A DNA stretch of 64,000 nucleotides from a virus, in IMG/VR virus record IMGVR_UViG_3300009431_000016. The stretch is one strand, 5' to 3'. Shown in pieces: positions 1 through 29,917 of this stretch (the first letter of the stretch is position 1; each line of letters starts with the position of its first letter). The notes beneath the pieces are model-generated. The model made no database searches. It was not told the DNA's origin and saw only the letters and a program-made list of their open reading frames with translations. A program made the position numbers and the translations under genes.

Positions 1-25
1 AAGCCCGCAGAAGGCTGCATCCGAG

Positions 26-8273: not shown

Positions 8274-9060
8274 CGATGATCTTCCAGACGAGGCAGCAGA
8301 AATATCACGGGAGGATATGCTGGATAACGACAACTTTGATGACCTGGAAGGCGATCTTGAAGAGATGCTAGCAGAGGAAACGGACCAAGAGGAGGCCGAG
8401 CTAATAGCCAAGTCGGACGGTCCGGTTGTCGATGCCAGTGGCCCTGAGGAATCACCGCCAAACGAGCCAAAAGAATTGGAAGAGCCGGAAAAGCCGTCGC
8501 CCGCCGAGGTAAATCCGTTGCAAGCGGACATCCTTCGGCAGATTCGCGACGCCGAAAACCGGTGTCAAAACGCTGAGCTGGCCGTCTTGAACGCCAAGCT
8601 CGAATTGAAGGATGAAAAGGCTGAGTTTGCTGGAGCGGTTACGGCTCTCCGGAGTCTGATTAAGAGCCTGACGAACGACAATACTCGTCCGCTAATCAAG
8701 GTCTTTGATGTGGCCGAACAAAATGGCGATAGTAAAAAGCAGACTGATCCGGGGAAAGAACAGACCGACGAAGCTGATCCGGAACTGCTTGCCGAAGAGG
8801 CCGAATTCGATGAGCTCCTGATGGAGGACCTGGCTGTACTTGGCCTTTCAGATGCCACGTTTGGCAAGCTAGTTGAATGTGGAGTCGAGACAATCGGAGG
8901 GCTCGAAGAGTTGCGGAAGGATATCAGCAAAGGCAAGGCAAGGTGGCCAAAAGGTATTGGACGGGTCACCGTGACGAAGATCGAAGAAGCTGTTATTGAG
9001 TGGCTCGCAAACTTGGAGATTTCCGGCGATGCCGATACGGAAGACAAAGAAGAAAAGTAA
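8248..9060 (+). CDS. acidic protein with C-terminal helix-hairpin-helix-like segment
   Basis: N-terminal 100 aa about 40% D/E; coiled-coil; LGLSDATFGKLVECGVETIGGLEEL. Confidence 0.35.
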   Translation: MTMVRELNSDDLPDEAAEISREDMLDNDNFDDLEGDLEEMLAEETDQEEAELIAKSDGPVVDASGPEESPPNEPKELEEPEKPSPAEVNPLQADILRQIRDAENRCQNAELAVLNAKLELKDEKAEFAGAVTALRSLIKSLTNDNTRPLIKVFDVAEQNGDSKKQTDPGKEQTDEADPELLAEEAEFDELLMEDLAVLGLSDATFGKLVECGVETIGGLEELRKDISKGKARWPKGIGRVTVTKIEEAVIEWLANLEISGDADTEDKEEK

Positions 9061-11599
9061 GGGCCTTGATAAGGCCGAAGTGAAGCGTGCTGCGGAAGGG
9101 CGCTGGCCGGAAATCCTTGAATGCATAGCGGGGATTCCGGCCGGTTGTCTAACCGGCAAACACGGGCCCTGCCCAAAATGCGGCGGCAAGGATCGTTTCC
9201 GGTTCATCGATGAGGAGAAGGGCGCCGTACTATGTAACGCGTGCTTCTCATGTCGAAACGGTGACGGACTTGCAGCCATCCAGTGGATGAAGAATCGACC
9301 GCCGACTAACTTTAAAAAAACAGTCTACGAGGTGGCCGAGTATCTCGGCCTCAATATTGGTGACGCTAGGCGACCGATCGATGCGGATGAACAGTTGGCA
9401 TTCCGAAAGTGGGACGACATTTTTACGCTTCGATGGTGCGAAGCCAAACAGCCAGTCAAACCGGAGTCTATTCAGAAGATTGGTGGCCAGCAGGCTATCT
9501 ACATGTCACGCTACCGCGTCTTCGCGATACCGATCTGGGGCACACATCTCGATGAGGCTGGACCTGTTGGCTGGATCGTCATGAGTTGTAATCCGTCTCA
9601 CGGTTTACCAAAACGTGGGCAGGACGGAAAGATCGAGTTCATTACCAAGCCGAAGTTGACGGCTGGGTCATCGCCGGGCCTGATCGGTGACATGAAGACA
9701 TTGCGATCAGAGGCAACAACAACTGTTTGGAAGCTCGAAGGTATTACCGACCTGCTGGCCTGGTACTCAATGCCGGATCGCCCGGAAGGCCACGTGGCGG
9801 TCACCAACTCAAACGGATGTATGCAGCGGCCGTCAAAGTGGATGGTCGACGCGATACAGGGTGACACCTCGACGCGATCCATCTACGTGATCCATGACGC
9901 CGACCTTCCAGGCCAACGCGGGGCGACAGGCTGGACTGAACACGGGCAACACCGTAACGGATGGGCGGAAGAACTGGCCACAAAAGAGAGACCGGCCGTC
10001 AATGTAGTCCTACCGTTCGTGGTGCACGACACTAATGGCCAAGATTTCCGCGATTGGTGTATGGACTATGGGACATTCACCGACCTTCGGGCAATGGCGG
10101 AAGTATCGCCCGAGATCTTGATATCCAGGATAGTAGCCAATGAACTACCAGACGATCCGTTCCGACTCGCACGACTGAATCTCGATCAGTACGAAGCTAA
10201 GACTGGCGGCCGCACCATCAAATACTGGATGGACAGCTGGTGGGTCTGGAAGCGACAGAGGTACGTCGAGATCGGGCGCCACGAGTTGCGGGCTAAGTTG
10301 ACGATGTCCATCAAGGAAGAGTTCGACCGGCTGAATATGCAGGAGATGGAGGCGTACGAGAAGCGACGCGCAGCCGGCGAGGCGGATGACGAGACGTCAC
10401 CGACAGCACGCAAGATCAGCGTACAGACAGTGTTAAACGTTGAAGCCGCCACCCGCGGCCTGACATACCTGCCTGGGAGCTGCGCACTGGGAACGTGGAT
10501 CCCAACGCGGGAGCGGCGCCCGTACGTATCACTCCGCAACGGGATCCTGGACGTCGATAAAGCTTTGCGATCCGAAGTGGGCTATCTGCTCGAACATTCG
10601 CCGGACTGGTTCTCTACGAGCCACCTCGACTTCGACTTCAAACCCGAAGCTACTTGCACGACCTGGCTGGAGTTTCTCGAATACAACCTTGATGCGGACT
10701 GGCAGATGATCCGCTTCCTACAGGAGTGGGTCGGCTACCTCTTGCTGCCAGACACCCGCGAGCAGTCGTTCTTGATCCTGCACGGCGAGGGCGGCAACGG
10801 CAAGACGGTGTTCTGCGCAGGGGTCGAAGCACTGCTCGGGACCGACAACTGCTCGTCGGTTCCGCTGGAGTCGTTCGGAGATCGGTTTTCGAAGACCGGC
10901 ACGCTTGGGCGCCTCGTGAACATTTGCGGCGACGTGGGCGAACTCGACGCAGTGGCCGAGGGAACGATCAAGGCGTTCACCGGGGGCAATAAGGTCTCGT
11001 TCGACCGGAAAGGCATACCGGCGGTCGAGGCACACCCCACCGCGAGGTTGATGATAGCCTGCAATAATCTCCCGCGGATCCGCGACCGGTCCGAGGGCAT
11101 CTGGCGCCGCATGCTCATCTCGCCGTGGGAGAAGTCGGTTCCGCCGGATAAGCGAGTCAAGGGCATGGACAGCCCGGACTGGTGGATCCGTACGGGGGAG
11201 CTGTCCGGGATGTTCAATTGGGCCCTTGTCGGCTTGCATCGCCTCCGCGAGAAGGGCGCCTTCTCTGAGGTGGCCACGATGAGCGAGGCCCGCCGCGAGT
11301 ACCAGGACACCAGCAACTCCGCCCGGCTTTTTCTGAGGGAACACACCGACAAGACGTCAGGTGTCAATCTCAAGTGCTCGCACCTCTTTCGTACCTACGC
11401 CGCGTGGTGCAAAGAGAATGGATTCTCGTCATTCTCGTCGGTTAATTTCTACCGCGAAGTGCACCGCTATCACACCGGAATCGACACCCGGCGCATCGGG
11501 CCGCGGGGGCAGCAGCAGAAATTTTATGTAGATCTTGACTACATTTCCCTTGACACGTCAGATGAGGAGTTGGCTGGTGCTTACACCTCAAACTTCTAA
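8996..11599 (+). CDS. zinc-finger primase fused to SF3 helicase (P4 alpha / D5-like replicative primase-helicase)
   Basis: CPKCGGKDRFRFIDEEKGAVLCNAC zinc ribbon; central primase-like region; C-terminal Walker A LILHGEGGNGKTVF typical of P4/D5 C-terminal helicase; start may instead be Met at 9029. Confidence 0.75.
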   Translation: MSGSQTWRFPAMPIRKTKKKSKGLDKAEVKRAAEGRWPEILECIAGIPAGCLTGKHGPCPKCGGKDRFRFIDEEKGAVLCNACFSCRNGDGLAAIQWMKNRPPTNFKKTVYEVAEYLGLNIGDARRPIDADEQLAFRKWDDIFTLRWCEAKQPVKPESIQKIGGQQAIYMSRYRVFAIPIWGTHLDEAGPVGWIVMSCNPSHGLPKRGQDGKIEFITKPKLTAGSSPGLIGDMKTLRSEATTTVWKLEGITDLLAWYSMPDRPEGHVAVTNSNGCMQRPSKWMVDAIQGDTSTRSIYVIHDADLPGQRGATGWTEHGQHRNGWAEELATKERPAVNVVLPFVVHDTNGQDFRDWCMDYGTFTDLRAMAEVSPEILISRIVANELPDDPFRLARLNLDQYEAKTGGRTIKYWMDSWWVWKRQRYVEIGRHELRAKLTMSIKEEFDRLNMQEMEAYEKRRAAGEADDETSPTARKISVQTVLNVEAATRGLTYLPGSCALGTWIPTRERRPYVSLRNGILDVDKALRSEVGYLLEHSPDWFSTSHLDFDFKPEATCTTWLEFLEYNLDADWQMIRFLQEWVGYLLLPDTREQSFLILHGEGGNGKTVFCAGVEALLGTDNCSSVPLESFGDRFSKTGTLGRLVNICGDVGELDAVAEGTIKAFTGGNKVSFDRKGIPAVEAHPTARLMIACNNLPRIRDRSEGIWRRMLISPWEKSVPPDKRVKGMDSPDWWIRTGELSGMFNWALVGLHRLREKGAFSEVATMSEARREYQDTSNSARLFLREHTDKTSGVNLKCSHLFRTYAAWCKENGFSSFSSVNFYREVHRYHTGIDTRRIGPRGQQQKFYVDLDYISLDTSDEELAGAYTSNF

Positions 11600-11970
11600 G
11601 GCGGGCGCCGTAGTATCGATGTCGGTACTACGGGGTTGCCATCGGTACTACGGAGCTGTCGCCGCAAGGTGTTGCCTCACAGGCACTTGCGACGCCCGTA
11701 GTACCCGTAGTCCCGTAGTCCCGATGTTTCCGACCCCCCTATATAGTTGTTGTTGTTATCTTCTACTCACCCTTTTACGGTTCTTATCCCCTTATGCGTG
11801 CGTAGGAAGAACTATACTACGGGTACTACGGGACAGTAACTATCATGGTACTACATACTTAAGACCACTCGCCGCGATACTACCACCAGGACTACACCGG
11901 TACTACGGCGTGAAATTTTTCTCTTACTTGTTTATGGTTCAGGCTTTACGTTAACACACATCGGTACTAC
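11600..11970. repeat. iteron array, about 12 copies of GTACTAC(GG)/CCGTAGTA in both orientations; putative replication origin
   Basis: noncoding 370 bp directly downstream of the primase-helicase; repeats such as cggtactacgg, cccgtagtacccgtagtcccgtagtcccg and actacgggtactacggg. Confidence 0.6.
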
Positions 11971-11971
11971 C

Positions 11972-12463
11972 ATGCGAAACCTACTGGCAACGATGTCTGA
12001 GGCGACGAAGACTTCTTCCATGGCCGGAGAATTACAGCCTGAGATGAAGCCCGCCCGGGAGGAGTTGGCGGTCGCCGGCCTTACTCGATTCTCCGATCAG
12101 ATGGTCGTGTACAAAAACGCCGACCTCCTGCCACAGGCCACGATCTGCTTCCAGTGTGGCGGGCATCTGATGTGGCTGGACGGGTACGGACAGATGACCT
12201 GCGAGAAATGCAATCCGGCGCCGTTTGCGAAGCTCGCCCTGGCCCGATGGCTGATCCACAACGGAAAATGGCTAATTCTTCAGGATGGCGAATATCACCC
12301 GATTTGCCGCGAGCGAAAGGACGCCTACCGGAAAAAATGCCCAGATTCTTGCGGACTTATTCCGGAGAGGTGGGTTGAAACGAAGAGCAAAACTGGTTAT
12401 CCTCATCTGGAATGCGGCCGTTGTGGCCGCTTCATTGGCTATGTGAAGCCGCCAAAGCTCTGA
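11972..12463 (+). CDS. zinc-ribbon protein, unknown function
   Basis: CFQCGG...CEKCN and C-terminal CGRCGRF motifs. Confidence 0.3.
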   Translation: MRNLLATMSEATKTSSMAGELQPEMKPAREELAVAGLTRFSDQMVVYKNADLLPQATICFQCGGHLMWLDGYGQMTCEKCNPAPFAKLALARWLIHNGKWLILQDGEYHPICRERKDAYRKKCPDSCGLIPERWVETKSKTGYPHLECGRCGRFIGYVKPPKL

Positions 12464-13488: not shown

Positions 13489-14067
13489 ATGCCGACTGGA
13501 TACGAGATGGATCAGTGCGATGTCTGCCAAAAGTCGAGATTGCACGCTTTGCTTGAAATACGCGTCATCGACGGCGTAACGCACCTCGCTTGCGAGGAGT
13601 GCAAGCTCAAGACGGTGTGTTCTACCTGCGAAGAGGTACACAGCGTCCTGCAACACCGCAAGATCGGAAGACTTAGGAAGCTTGTTTGTGAAGAATGTCA
13701 CCAGAAGAGCATGGCTTGCTCTGTCTGTCATTTACCAAAGAGGCCACTTACCTATCGTCGCTTGGATGGCACCAAAAGGTATGTCTGTGATGAATGTTTT
13801 GACAAAGTGCAATGCGGATTCTGCCTGGGGCAGGTGCGTAAGTTTCGTGCGAAGATTGCACAACAAGATTCGATTTGGTTTTACCTATGCAAGAAGTGTC
13901 AGCGTGCTTGGGCGGAGCGGTTCAGCGTCCCTAAGGGTGTACCATCTCAAGATCAGATTGAGCAGCGGGCTGCTCAGATCCGCGCGACATGGACGCCCGA
14001 GGAACGCGACAAGCGACGCTCTGGTATTCGTGAACTGCTTGCTGTATTAGCGGGAGACACTGAATGA
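13489..14067 (+). CDS. multi-zinc-finger protein (at least 7 CxxC pairs)
   Basis: CDVCQ, CEECK, CSTCEE, CEECH, CSVCH, CDECF, CGFC, CKKCQ spaced regularly. Confidence 0.4.
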   Translation: MPTGYEMDQCDVCQKSRLHALLEIRVIDGVTHLACEECKLKTVCSTCEEVHSVLQHRKIGRLRKLVCEECHQKSMACSVCHLPKRPLTYRRLDGTKRYVCDECFDKVQCGFCLGQVRKFRAKIAQQDSIWFYLCKKCQRAWAERFSVPKGVPSQDQIEQRAAQIRATWTPEERDKRRSGIRELLAVLAGDTE

Positions 14068-14498
14068 CGCGTTCACGCGATTTATCAGAGTTCGGCCTCC
14101 TAGAAGCCCAGGAGCTAACAAACCAGGGGAGGTACTGGTATCTCGCCAGCCCCTACACCAAGTACACCGACCACGACTATGCTTTCCGGGAGATCGCTCG
14201 CTGTGCTGGCTGGCTTCTTCGCAGGAAGGTGCACACTTTCTGTCCGATCACGCACAGTCACCCGATCTCTTTGTATGGTGACATTCCGCTGTGTGATCAC
14301 GGTATCTGGATTCCGGCAGACGAGCCGATCTTGCGTGGCGCCTGTGGAATGATCATTGCCCTAATGCCTGGTTGGGATGACAGCAAGGGTATCGAGATTG
14401 AGACCGACATCTTCTGCGAGATGGGTCTGCCGGTTCGTCATTTACTTTGGCCACGAGACGATCCTGAATGGGAGGCATGCCGTGCACGACTCGGGTAA
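14064..14498 (+). CDS. hypothetical protein
   Basis: 144-aa ORF; ATGA overlap. Confidence 0.3.
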   Translation: MTRSRDLSEFGLLEAQELTNQGRYWYLASPYTKYTDHDYAFREIARCAGWLLRRKVHTFCPITHSHPISLYGDIPLCDHGIWIPADEPILRGACGMIIALMPGWDDSKGIEIETDIFCEMGLPVRHLLWPRDDPEWEACRARLG

Positions 14499-15036
14499 GA
14501 GAGAGCAATTCAAAGGCGGTACTGTGCGAGATACAGCAGAAGGAAAACCGAGGCCAGACCTAGCGTCTCCATTTGCAGAAAAGCGAATTGGAGAATGGTT
14601 CAGGCTTGGCGCAGAGAAGTACGCAGCCAGAAACTGGGAGACCGGGATGCCGATCTCACGAGTCTGGGCATCACTGCGCAGACACGTACTCGACTGGCAG
14701 TCCGGAGACCGTTCCGAAGATCACCTCGCAGCTATTGCATGGAACGCCGAGGCGATCATGCACTATGAGGAGATGATCGTCCGCGGGCGACTTCCGGAAG
14801 AGCTGGCAGACATGCCGGACTACAAAGTCGCCGAGAAGTTCCAGTGTTTCAAGTTCCGTGCCCCGGCGGTCGAATCGGAGGAGTCTATCAACGAGAAGAT
14901 GCGGGAGGCCTCAGACTGTCTCACGTGCATGTACGACGGGGAGTGCGATGGGAATGTCTGTCAGTGTCCTCCGGAGGGCGCCCAACAGCGAGGCTACGAT
15001 CCCATCGATATCACTGAACCCAATTCCGGAGAATAA
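14482..15036 (+). CDS. protein with dATP/dGTP diphosphohydrolase N-terminal-like domain
   Basis: GKPRPDL...GAEKYAARNWETG...SRVWASLRRHVLDWQSGDRSEDHLAAIAWNA matches the conserved KPRxDL / GA.KY..NW / RH..W / ED.HLAA pattern; GTG start at 14482 after GGAGG. Confidence 0.5.
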   Translation: MHDSGKREQFKGGTVRDTAEGKPRPDLASPFAEKRIGEWFRLGAEKYAARNWETGMPISRVWASLRRHVLDWQSGDRSEDHLAAIAWNAEAIMHYEEMIVRGRLPEELADMPDYKVAEKFQCFKFRAPAVESEESINEKMREASDCLTCMYDGECDGNVCQCPPEGAQQRGYDPIDITEPNSGE

Positions 15037-28519: not shown

Positions 28520-29917
28520 ATGGTTAAAATGGCCGTAAAAAAGTGTTTTTTGCACCCCAAACAGGCCCAGTTTCGGCGCCTCCGGGAGCGGATCTGCGGC
28601 TTCGTGGGCGGCCGCGGCGTAGGCAAGACCTACGTGGGATCAGTTGATGCCATTTTCAGCACGCCCGGCGGGATGCATGCCATGGCGGTCAGCCCAACTT
28701 ATTCGGACGTGGAAGAGACCACGCTGCCCACTTTCATCCACGCCGCTGAGACCCTTGGCGTGTTACACCGCGTCCGTAGATCGCCCCCGCCGCGGGTCTG
28801 GTTCCGCGCGAGAGACGGCGGGATCGCCGAGATAGTTTTCCGGTCCGGGGAAGAGCCTGAGCGGTTACGCGGTCCCACAAAGTGTCTGCTGTGGATCGAT
28901 GAGGCGTCCGTCCAGGTCGAGGAAGTTTTCAAACTCGGCTTGCCAGTGTTGCGCGAACGCGGGCAGCCCGGTAGGCTGAGTATGACGTTTACCCCAAAGG
29001 GGCGTCGACACTGGACCTATTCTACATTCTTCCGTCGCGTTGGTGAGGAAGAGATCCCGAGGCCCAACACGGCTCTCGTTCAGGCGCACACGAGCGAGAA
29101 TCCGTTCCTTCCCGACGACTACGCCGCGACGATCGCCGAGTACTACTCGTCCGCGATGCGTGAGCAGGAGCTGGCCGGTAAGTTTGTCGACTTACTGGGG
29201 CTGATGTTTAAGCGTCACTGGTTCCAGCTGACAGATCACATTCCGACTGACGCCACCCGTATTCGTTATTGGGACAAAGCCGCCACGGAGGGCGCCGGGG
29301 CGTACTCGTGCGGCGTCCTGGCGTCCAGGACCCAACAGGGCAGGGTGACCGTGGAAGACGTCGTGCGAGGTCAATGGAGTTGGGAGAAGCGGAATCAGAT
29401 CATGCTGCAGACTGCGGAGGCAGACGCCGCGAAGTGGGGAAACGCGGTCATCATCTATTTTGAGCAGGAACCCGGATCCGGCGGCAAGGAGTCGGCACAA
29501 CAGACAATCCGTATGTTGTCGCGGTTTCCTGCCTACCGCGACATCGTGAGCGGGAAAGAATACCAGGTCAAGGACAAGCAAAAATTGCCCGGCGAGGCAA
29601 AAGTTGTCCGGGCTCGGCCATATTCTGCGCAATGTGAGGCTGGGAACGTGTATCTCCGGCGAGCGCCGTGGGTTGGGGATTACCTCGACGAGTTGACAGC
29701 ATTCCCGGAATACAGCTACGCCGACCAGGTGGATGCTAGCAGCGGCGCCTACAACAAGTTGGCGGACCGGTCCGGTTACTGGAATGAGCCACCATCTGCA
29801 ATGAGACCTGACCCTGTGGACGCTGGTGAGCGGTTTGGCATCCATTTTGAACGACACGAGGACGTAGGCCGGGATACCGGCGGGAGGCGAGAAGTGCCTT
29901 GGGAGAGACACCGATAA
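28520..29917 (+). CDS. terL: terminase large subunit
   Basis: N-terminal ATPase Walker A FVGGRGVGKTYVG, Walker B LLWIDEAS; C-terminal nuclease region with conserved acidic residues (YSYADQVDASSG). Confidence 0.8.
   Translation: MVKMAVKKCFLHPKQAQFRRLRERICGFVGGRGVGKTYVGSVDAIFSTPGGMHAMAVSPTYSDVEETTLPTFIHAAETLGVLHRVRRSPPPRVWFRARDGGIAEIVFRSGEEPERLRGPTKCLLWIDEASVQVEEVFKLGLPVLRERGQPGRLSMTFTPKGRRHWTYSTFFRRVGEEEIPRPNTALVQAHTSENPFLPDDYAATIAEYYSSAMREQELAGKFVDLLGLMFKRHWFQLTDHIPTDATRIRYWDKAATEGAGAYSCGVLASRTQQGRVTVEDVVRGQWSWEKRNQIMLQTAEADAAKWGNAVIIYFEQEPGSGGKESAQQTIRMLSRFPAYRDIVSGKEYQVKDKQKLPGEAKVVRARPYSAQCEAGNVYLRRAPWVGDYLDELTAFPEYSYADQVDASSGAYNKLADRSGYWNEPPSAMRPDPVDAGERFGIHFERHEDVGRDTGGRREVPWERHR

Follow-up and report, generated by a model that had tools for sequence, protein, structure and literature searches.

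A repeat array 3′ of a primase-helicase gene as a probable replication origin in an uncultured phage group with likely Planctomycetota hosts

What is the function of an intergenic gap that carries many copies of one short repeat and separates the primase-helicase gene of a tailed phage from the gene that follows? The gap measures 372 nt, from the TAA stop codon of the primase-helicase (11597-11599) to the next ATG (11972), and lies within a 64,000-nt stretch of the IMG/VR record IMGVR_UViG_3300009431_000016 (hereafter, the window). A sequence-only reading had suggested that the repeats mark a replication origin. Our analysis supports this computationally on five counts: the position of the array; two opposed sets of sites around an AT-rich spacer; the same layout in relatives; co-variation of the repeat with a winged helix of the primase-helicase; and the precedent of the SaPI/PICI islands. 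We conclude that 11608-11972 is probably a phage replication origin of the SaPI/PICI/P4 pri-rep-ori type, at which replication would fire.

The array and its central spacer

The window is a tailed-phage genome with a replication/recombination module at 0.5-12 kb (genes for a DNA methylase, an AAA_24 ATPase, a RecD-like helicase, an ERCC4 nuclease and the primase-helicase), nucleotide-metabolism genes at 14-15 kb and a large terminase gene at 28520-29917. On the plus strand at 14064-15036, adjacent ORFs encode a DUF1937 protein (nucleoside 2-deoxyribosyltransferase-like in PHROGs) and a dATP/dGTP diphosphohydrolase N-terminal domain (PF18909), and the annotations of the pair hint that the phage edits the nucleotide pool or modifies bases. 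None of 50,697 phage records matched the window at the DNA level, and neither an Rfam scan nor a tRNA scan of the window returned anything.

The gap contains 13 copies of (G/T)ACTAC within 11608-11972, with the full consensus GGTACTACGG. The sequence-only reading had counted about 12 copies of GTACTAC(GG) in both orientations, some of them in tandem, within a noncoding stretch right after a P4/D5-type primase-helicase gene; this description stands, with the count now exact and with no JGI gene call in the 372 nt. Against 0.23 sites expected from the rest of the window, [TG]ACTAC occurs 13 times in 11600-11975 (Poisson P 7e-19), and ACTACGG occurs nine times in the same interval against 0.02 expected. 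Exact GTACTAC is found 11 times in 64 kb where 2.3 would be expected, a count reached in 0 of 100 shuffles, and seven of the 11 copies are inside 11625-11970. The cluster is single: elsewhere in the 64 kb, two [TG]ACTAC sites are the most that any 376-nt stretch contains, in a scan that covered the window and thus all but ~2.5 kb of the 66.5-kb source contig.

The array adjoins the gene of the proposed initiator, as had been suggested, with its first site 9 nt 3′ of the primase-helicase stop codon. It spans 365 nt, with six sites to the left of a 90-nt AT-rich spacer and seven plus-strand sites to its right; overall, the minus strand has four sites (starting at 11608, 11696, 11705 and 11713) and the plus strand nine, and tandem sites are spaced by 8-9 nt. 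The left outer group (11608-11653; orientation -, +, +) comprises site 1 on the minus strand (GATACTACGG, 11608-11617) and, on the plus strand, sites 2 and 3 (both GGTACTACGG, 11624-11633 and 11644-11653), which are 20 nt apart. The left inner group is a minus-strand triplet, with GGTACTACGG at 11696-11705 (site 4) and GGGACTACGG at both 11705-11714 (site 5) and 11713-11722 (site 6), at spacings of 9 and 8 nt; the string cccgtagtacccgtagtcccgtagtcccg is located here, at 11695-11723. The right group (sites 7-12, 11813-11908) is entirely on the plus strand: TATACTACGG at 11813-11822, GGTACTACGG at 11822-11831, GGTACTACAT at 11847-11856, GATACTACC at 11876-11884, GGACTACAC at 11889-11897 and GGTACTACGG again at 11899-11908. 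Site 13 (GGTACTACCA, 11963-11972, plus strand) ends on the A of the next gene's ATG.

Sites 4-6 (minus) and 7-8 (plus), which flank the spacer, oppose each other. The minus triplet and the first two right-arm sites together build a perfect 17-nt inverted repeat (11695-11711 and 11816-11832) that encloses 104 nt. Folding the array as single-stranded DNA gave z = -2.6, a value that only restates the inverted repeats.

The repeat-free central spacer (11723-11812, 90 nt) is the proposed melting region. In a 100-nt profile, GC content is 0.60-0.64 over the left arm and then drops to 0.43-0.47 over the spacer, compared with 0.55 for the surrounding 11 kb; the lowest 40-nt window has a GC of 0.33. 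The sequence-only reading had pointed to an AT-rich unwinding element next to the array. Such an element is present, but it sits in the centre of the array rather than beside it. The top strand of the spacer has a pyrimidine fraction of 0.66 and includes CCCCCCTATATAG and the alternating stretch TATGCGTGCGTA.

The layout in related loci

Searching IMG/VR for close relatives with the single protein returned nothing, while an alignment-based search did find relatives; cultured-phage homologues of the primase-helicase are at most 24-28% identical to it. Over 8-10 kb, the contigs L203 and L204, from the JGI samples 3300009320 and 3300013120, are identical to the window except for 2-3 bases, none of them inside the array, and the same phage therefore recurs across samples. 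Where the relatives come from genome assemblies, these are overwhelmingly Planctomycetota, and some homologues lie inside megabase chromosomal contigs; the host is thus most likely a planctomycete and some of the relatives are prophages. Homologues in such contigs include L128 (chromosome of Pirellulaceae bacterium SH449, 7.05 Mb), L130, L132 and L133, a location from which part of the family is integrated as prophages or islands. A clear GGGACAC array follows the gene in L130; L128 has none under the strict criterion described below.

Homologues at ~50% identity were located on their contigs. In L001 and L004 the repeat (G)GACTAC(G/C)G follows directly after the stop codon with the layout seen in the window: three sites, three inverted sites, a ~100-nt spacer opening CCCC-TATA, three sites and then the next gene. 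L002 has the layout of the window with a different repeat, ATTGTGCAC (the L002 type is also given as TTGTGCAC).

Another 117 loci were then taken from metagenomes and IMG/VR, with 80 more coming from genomes, and we used a position-blind test in which the densest exact 7-mer cluster of each whole locus was recorded and at least five copies counted as a cluster. Among the 88 distinct loci with at least 400 nt past the stop codon, 59 hold such a cluster. In 50 of these 59, the cluster starts between -100 and +1200 of the primase-helicase stop codon, an interval that accounts for 18% of the sequence (binomial P 1e-28); 42 of the 59 clusters start within 100 nt of the stop codon and three more straddle it. 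The arrangement is shared by 20 of 55 bacterial genome loci, including those of the distant Alcaligenaceae and Bosea. Under the strict exact-7-mer criterion, ~40% of related loci have no clear array. An 8-mer scan of 1.36 kb allowing one mismatch, which is too noisy for statistics, revealed arrays that the criterion had missed, e.g. in L004, L010, L021 and L024.

Most of ~140 related loci from metagenomes, viruses and Planctomycetota genomes have the layout after the homologous gene, and the comparative set comprises ~70 loci with a common layout and differing repeats. At least 20 repeat types were seen, among them GGACTACGG, TAGGACAC, TAGGAACA, TTGTGCAC and GCGTAACG. Measured over 52 arrays, the longest stretch free of repeats is 100 nt at the median, and its GC averages 0.41 where the locus has 0.57; its GC is below that of the locus in all 52, and the sites that flank it are inverted in 43. 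Given this survey and that of the loci, the layout is a conserved property of the 3′ flank of this gene family, and the sequence of the repeat is not.

The spacers have features of their own. Among those of the window and 45 related arrays, most carry a ~40-nt homopurine/homopyrimidine tract; the top strand is purine-rich in 33 of the 52 arrays and pyrimidine-rich in the clade of the window. An alternating purine-pyrimidine stretch follows the tract, namely TATGCGTGCGTA in the window and CGCGCACGCGCACGC in L040, L077 and L078. The elements CCCTAT on the left of the spacer and (A)TAGGGG on the right are constant across repeat types. These elements and the tract could serve as a promoter, as a second site of binding or, being prone to form structure, as an aid to melting.

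The first gene after the array (11972-12463, plus strand; JGI start 11993) encodes a small zinc-ribbon protein. At least 32 of 52 related loci have it next to the array, among them L001 (8745-9161) and L002 (9444-10031). The protein has an N-terminal MG(L/I)L..I followed by C-x2-C ... W..Y ... C-x2-C-xPxP, and Pfam and PHROGs searches with it gave no match. Other neighbours vary. The N-terminal motif IPFGKY(R/K)G.P is common to a 218-aa gene of L002 (8609-9265) and a 243-aa ORF of L098; in L002 the motif gene lies between the primase-helicase gene and the array, and in L098, where the array starts 210 nt after the primase-helicase stop codon, it is the first ORF 3′ of the array. From these two placements, the array has no rigid link to the gene on either side. 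L004 has a gene of the sigma-70 family (regions 2 and 4) at 9599-10579, ~1 kb downstream of its array; none was found among the window ORFs scanned.

The primase-helicase winged helix and its co-variation with the repeat

The primase-helicase gene (8996-11599, plus strand), which encodes the proposed initiator, gives 867 aa from a TTG at 8996; the JGI start at 9029 gives 856 aa. P0001 is 100% identical to the product. PHROGs calls it a DNA primase, and its Pfam domains are Zn_Ribbon_Prim (54-92), D5_N, an SF3 helicase core (DUF5906) and RFX_DNA_binding (775-848). In the alignment E248 is nearly invariant, and D301 and D303 are invariant. We read these residues as a Toprim-like signature; a Pfam scan of the protein gave no Toprim match.

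The C-terminal winged helix (residues 775-848; Pfam RFX_DNA_binding, E 1.4e-9) is encoded at 11318-11539 on the plus strand. An AlphaFold2 model of residues 735-867 has a pLDDT of 90 and places helices at 794-808 and 815-825 (the second long helix) and the wing hairpin at 830-849. Of the solved structures, the one whose fold it matches best is the RFX1 DNA-binding domain on DNA (1DP7), with a TM score of 0.91 on the target and an rmsd of 1.1 Å. RFX-type domains touch DNA via helix 3 and the wing (PMC2777425). The sole sequence match in the PDB is 7OLA (E 1.2e-10, query residues 512-825, reaching into the winged helix), which is PriRep5 of the staphylococcal island SaPI5 (PMC9371898).

If the repeats are read through the winged helix, then the winged helix should change when the repeat changes. 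We sorted 56 loci into repeat types and made all pairwise comparisons of the helicase core (548-770) and the winged helix (790-848). At equal helicase-core identity, pairs with the same repeat have a winged-helix identity higher by 0.056, which 0 of 2000 permutations reach, in a test that, like the others of this kind, cannot fully remove shared ancestry. The reverse control, helicase identity given the winged helix, was null (641 of 2000). We also used the 31 loci that have both the zinc-ribbon neighbour and a repeat class. Here the winged-helix excess was 0.090 (0 of 5000), and that of the downstream zinc-ribbon protein was null, at -0.004 (3239 of 5000). The zinc-ribbon protein is thus probably not the repeat binder, since its sequence does not track the repeat type. 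For a 270-aa protein encoded upstream, the comparison was underpowered, with eight loci and only two same-type pairs; in most loci that have an array, no conservation of this protein can be detected.

Across the 313 alignment columns, two positions in the wing loop, Q840 (z 15) and G835 (z 10), rank top, and R837, K842, T831 and D846 of the same hairpin are also among the top 15. In the 56 array loci, Q840 is limited to GACTAC repeats and occurs in two helicase lineages that are not neighbours, L840 is limited to GGAACA repeats and occurs in three separate helicase lineages, and R840 accompanies all other repeat types; the exception is L101, of the GGAACA type, which retains R840. The nearest helicase relatives of the Q840 and L840 groups have R840 and a different repeat. 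Because the residue has switched repeatedly and independently, direct read-out by the wing is the best explanation. L010 (GGGACTAA) had probably been misplaced in the ACTAC class, given that L048, its nearest relative, has ATAGGAC and that both have R840; L010 was reassigned for later tests.

The repeat-binding domain is therefore likely to be the C-terminal winged helix, at residues ~775-848, judging from the fold and from the co-variation. This corrects the earlier choice of the N-terminal domain for binding assays.

More tentatively, one or two wing-loop residues might form a readable recognition code (at 840, Q for GACTAC, R for GGACAC and L for GGAACA; at 835, G or R), with switches between them having produced dozens of orthogonal origins in Planctomycetota phages and prophages, and the composite spacer perhaps aiding melting. 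We regard this extended proposal as possible but rather doubtful. In its spacer part, an unusual DNA structure or a second conserved binding activity could assist melting.

Readings of the array and comparison with known systems

The position of the array could also suggest transcriptional control, in which the repeats would be operators for a promoter in the spacer that drives the downstream operon led by the zinc-ribbon gene, the regulator being the primase-helicase or another protein, and replication would start elsewhere. The final repeat runs into the next gene's ATG, and in relatives the last repeat group is ~10-20 nt or less 5′ of the start codon. In L002, L081 and L103 there is extra DNA between the primase stop codon and the array, so that the array keeps adjoining the downstream gene, and the TATA-like and G-rich elements of the spacer are constant across repeat types. 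Yet 13 opposed sites around a ~100-nt AT-rich gap go well beyond typical operators and match proven origins; a scan of 11300-12300 for sigma-70-type promoters found none (although the promoter type of the host may differ); and the primase gene keeps its array in L098 and L079, where the gene 3′ of the array is a different one. A terminator scan of the same interval gave a single terminator-like match, inside the next gene on the minus strand. Control of transcription in place of replication is accordingly unlikely in our view. A regulatory side role is possible, because the right arm extends as far as the next gene's start codon, and would be compatible with the array being an origin.

Packaging and partition sites are likewise arrays of short repeats, and the array might be a packaging site (pac/cos, bound by a small terminase) or a plasmid-partition centromere. 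Neither would account for a repeat type that co-varies with the winged helix of the primase-helicase, or for an array that follows the primase-helicase gene in relatives wherever this could be examined; moreover, the large terminase gene is 17 kb away and no ParA or ParB was found among the 30 ORFs scanned, so we consider both functions highly improbable. It is scarcely credible that the repeats are coding, i.e. peptide motifs of a real ORF at 11535-11954 (139 aa, TTG start). One stop-free frame does cross the array, but such a frame has no discriminating value, as chance puts one over 34 of the 52 short arrays. The ORF shares 65 nt with the end of the primase-helicase gene, it encodes a Cys/Arg/Leu-rich product with a low-complexity look, the repeats are on both strands, and the JGI gene calls for two near-identical contigs with the same protein leave the stretch empty. 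In the closest relatives the corresponding stretch is just 170 nt long (L001) or has 280 nt in another arrangement (L004), and with 170 nt in the closest relative the ORF cannot be conserved.

Returning to the origin, we propose that the C-terminal RFX-type winged helix of the primase-helicase encoded upstream would dock on the GGTACTACGG repeats, and that two helicase assemblies would load face to face and melt the 90-nt spacer. Two facing assemblies are proposed because the repeat groups beside the spacer point opposite ways. The SF3 helicase would then unwind outwards, the fused zinc-ribbon primase would make primers and a host polymerase would extend them; a host enzyme is proposed because no phage DNA polymerase was seen among the window ORFs scanned. 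That the protein physically binds the repeats, that the spacer melts, that firing is bidirectional and that a host polymerase takes part are our inferences. Cumulative GC skew over the whole window climbs steadily with gene orientation and makes no turn at 11.7 kb; it speaks neither for nor against an origin.

This analysis offers a concrete and testable pair of origin and initiator for a phage group without a cultured relative, whose likely hosts, the Planctomycetota, are a phylum with few genetic tools. The ~70 diversified loci could supply mutually compatible minimal replicons, and the comparative set is a natural experiment on DNA reading by the wing of RFX-type winged helices. For annotation, a repeat-rich gap 3′ of a P4-family primase gene is better labelled a putative origin than a small ORF.

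The closest precedent is that of the SaPIs, whose origins are immediately 3′ of rep and have 6-12 short repeats with an AT-rich centre, at least two on each side and oriented against those across the centre. What binds these repeats is a self-loading SF3 helicase, by way of its C-terminal winged helix, and the helicase needs no ATP for binding or melting (PMC9371898). The E. coli PICIs (EcCICFT073) have the same design, functionally tested (PMC6092414). As in SaPIbov1, SaPI1 and SaPI5, where the origin with its opposed repeats and AT-rich centre is directly 3′ of the pri-rep frame, the window has an upstream SF3 helicase, the presumed initiator, with a C-terminal winged helix, an array immediately 3′ of its frame, and an AT-rich centre with at least two opposed repeats on each side. 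All the sequence-level features of a SaPI/PICI origin are thus found here, and we therefore read the array as a phage origin. The window differs from these systems in being a tailed phage of 64+ kb with its own terminase rather than a satellite island, in having 13 sites of the 10-mer GGTACTACGG where SaPI/PICI repeats are 5-6 nt, in a right arm that reaches the next start codon, and in its primase, which belongs to the zinc-ribbon P4-alpha type. The protein shares little sequence identity with PriRep5 (E 1e-10, helicase part).

P4 alpha comprises a DnaG-type primase, an SF3 helicase and a C-terminal winged helix, in that order (PMC2777425). [quoted passage not shown] P4 alpha is reported to bind octamer repeats, TGTTCACC (Ziegelin and Lanka 1995, cited in PMC6092414). 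The repeat of L018 (2997-3260), TGTTCAATG, is close to this octamer. P4 requires two separated cis elements, ori and crr, whereas the window has one cluster in 64 kb, abutting the gene.

[quoted passage not shown] The perfect 17-nt inverted repeat of the window, enclosing 104 nt, is likewise downstream of the gene. However, pRN1 is an archaeal plasmid with a prim-pol primase, and its origin is a stem-loop without defined repeats for which specific binding could not be shown (PMC2777425).

There is also a likeness to the origins of iteron plasmids (RepA, pi, TrfA) and to the lambda ori, where initiator repeats lie beside an AT-rich unwinding element in or near the initiator gene. Iteron origins have direct, helically phased repeats of 17-22 bp, a non-helicase initiator, DnaA boxes and loading of the host DnaB. 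In contrast, the repeats here are 10 nt long, in both orientations and spaced by 8-9 nt, and with up to one mismatch allowed no DnaA box was found in the array, the count over the window being that expected by chance. The arrangement would not surprise a specialist; the diversified repeats, the matching wing residues and the composite spacer are its testable by-product. The design is already known, and what is new is this instance, in an uncultured group of Planctomycetota phages.
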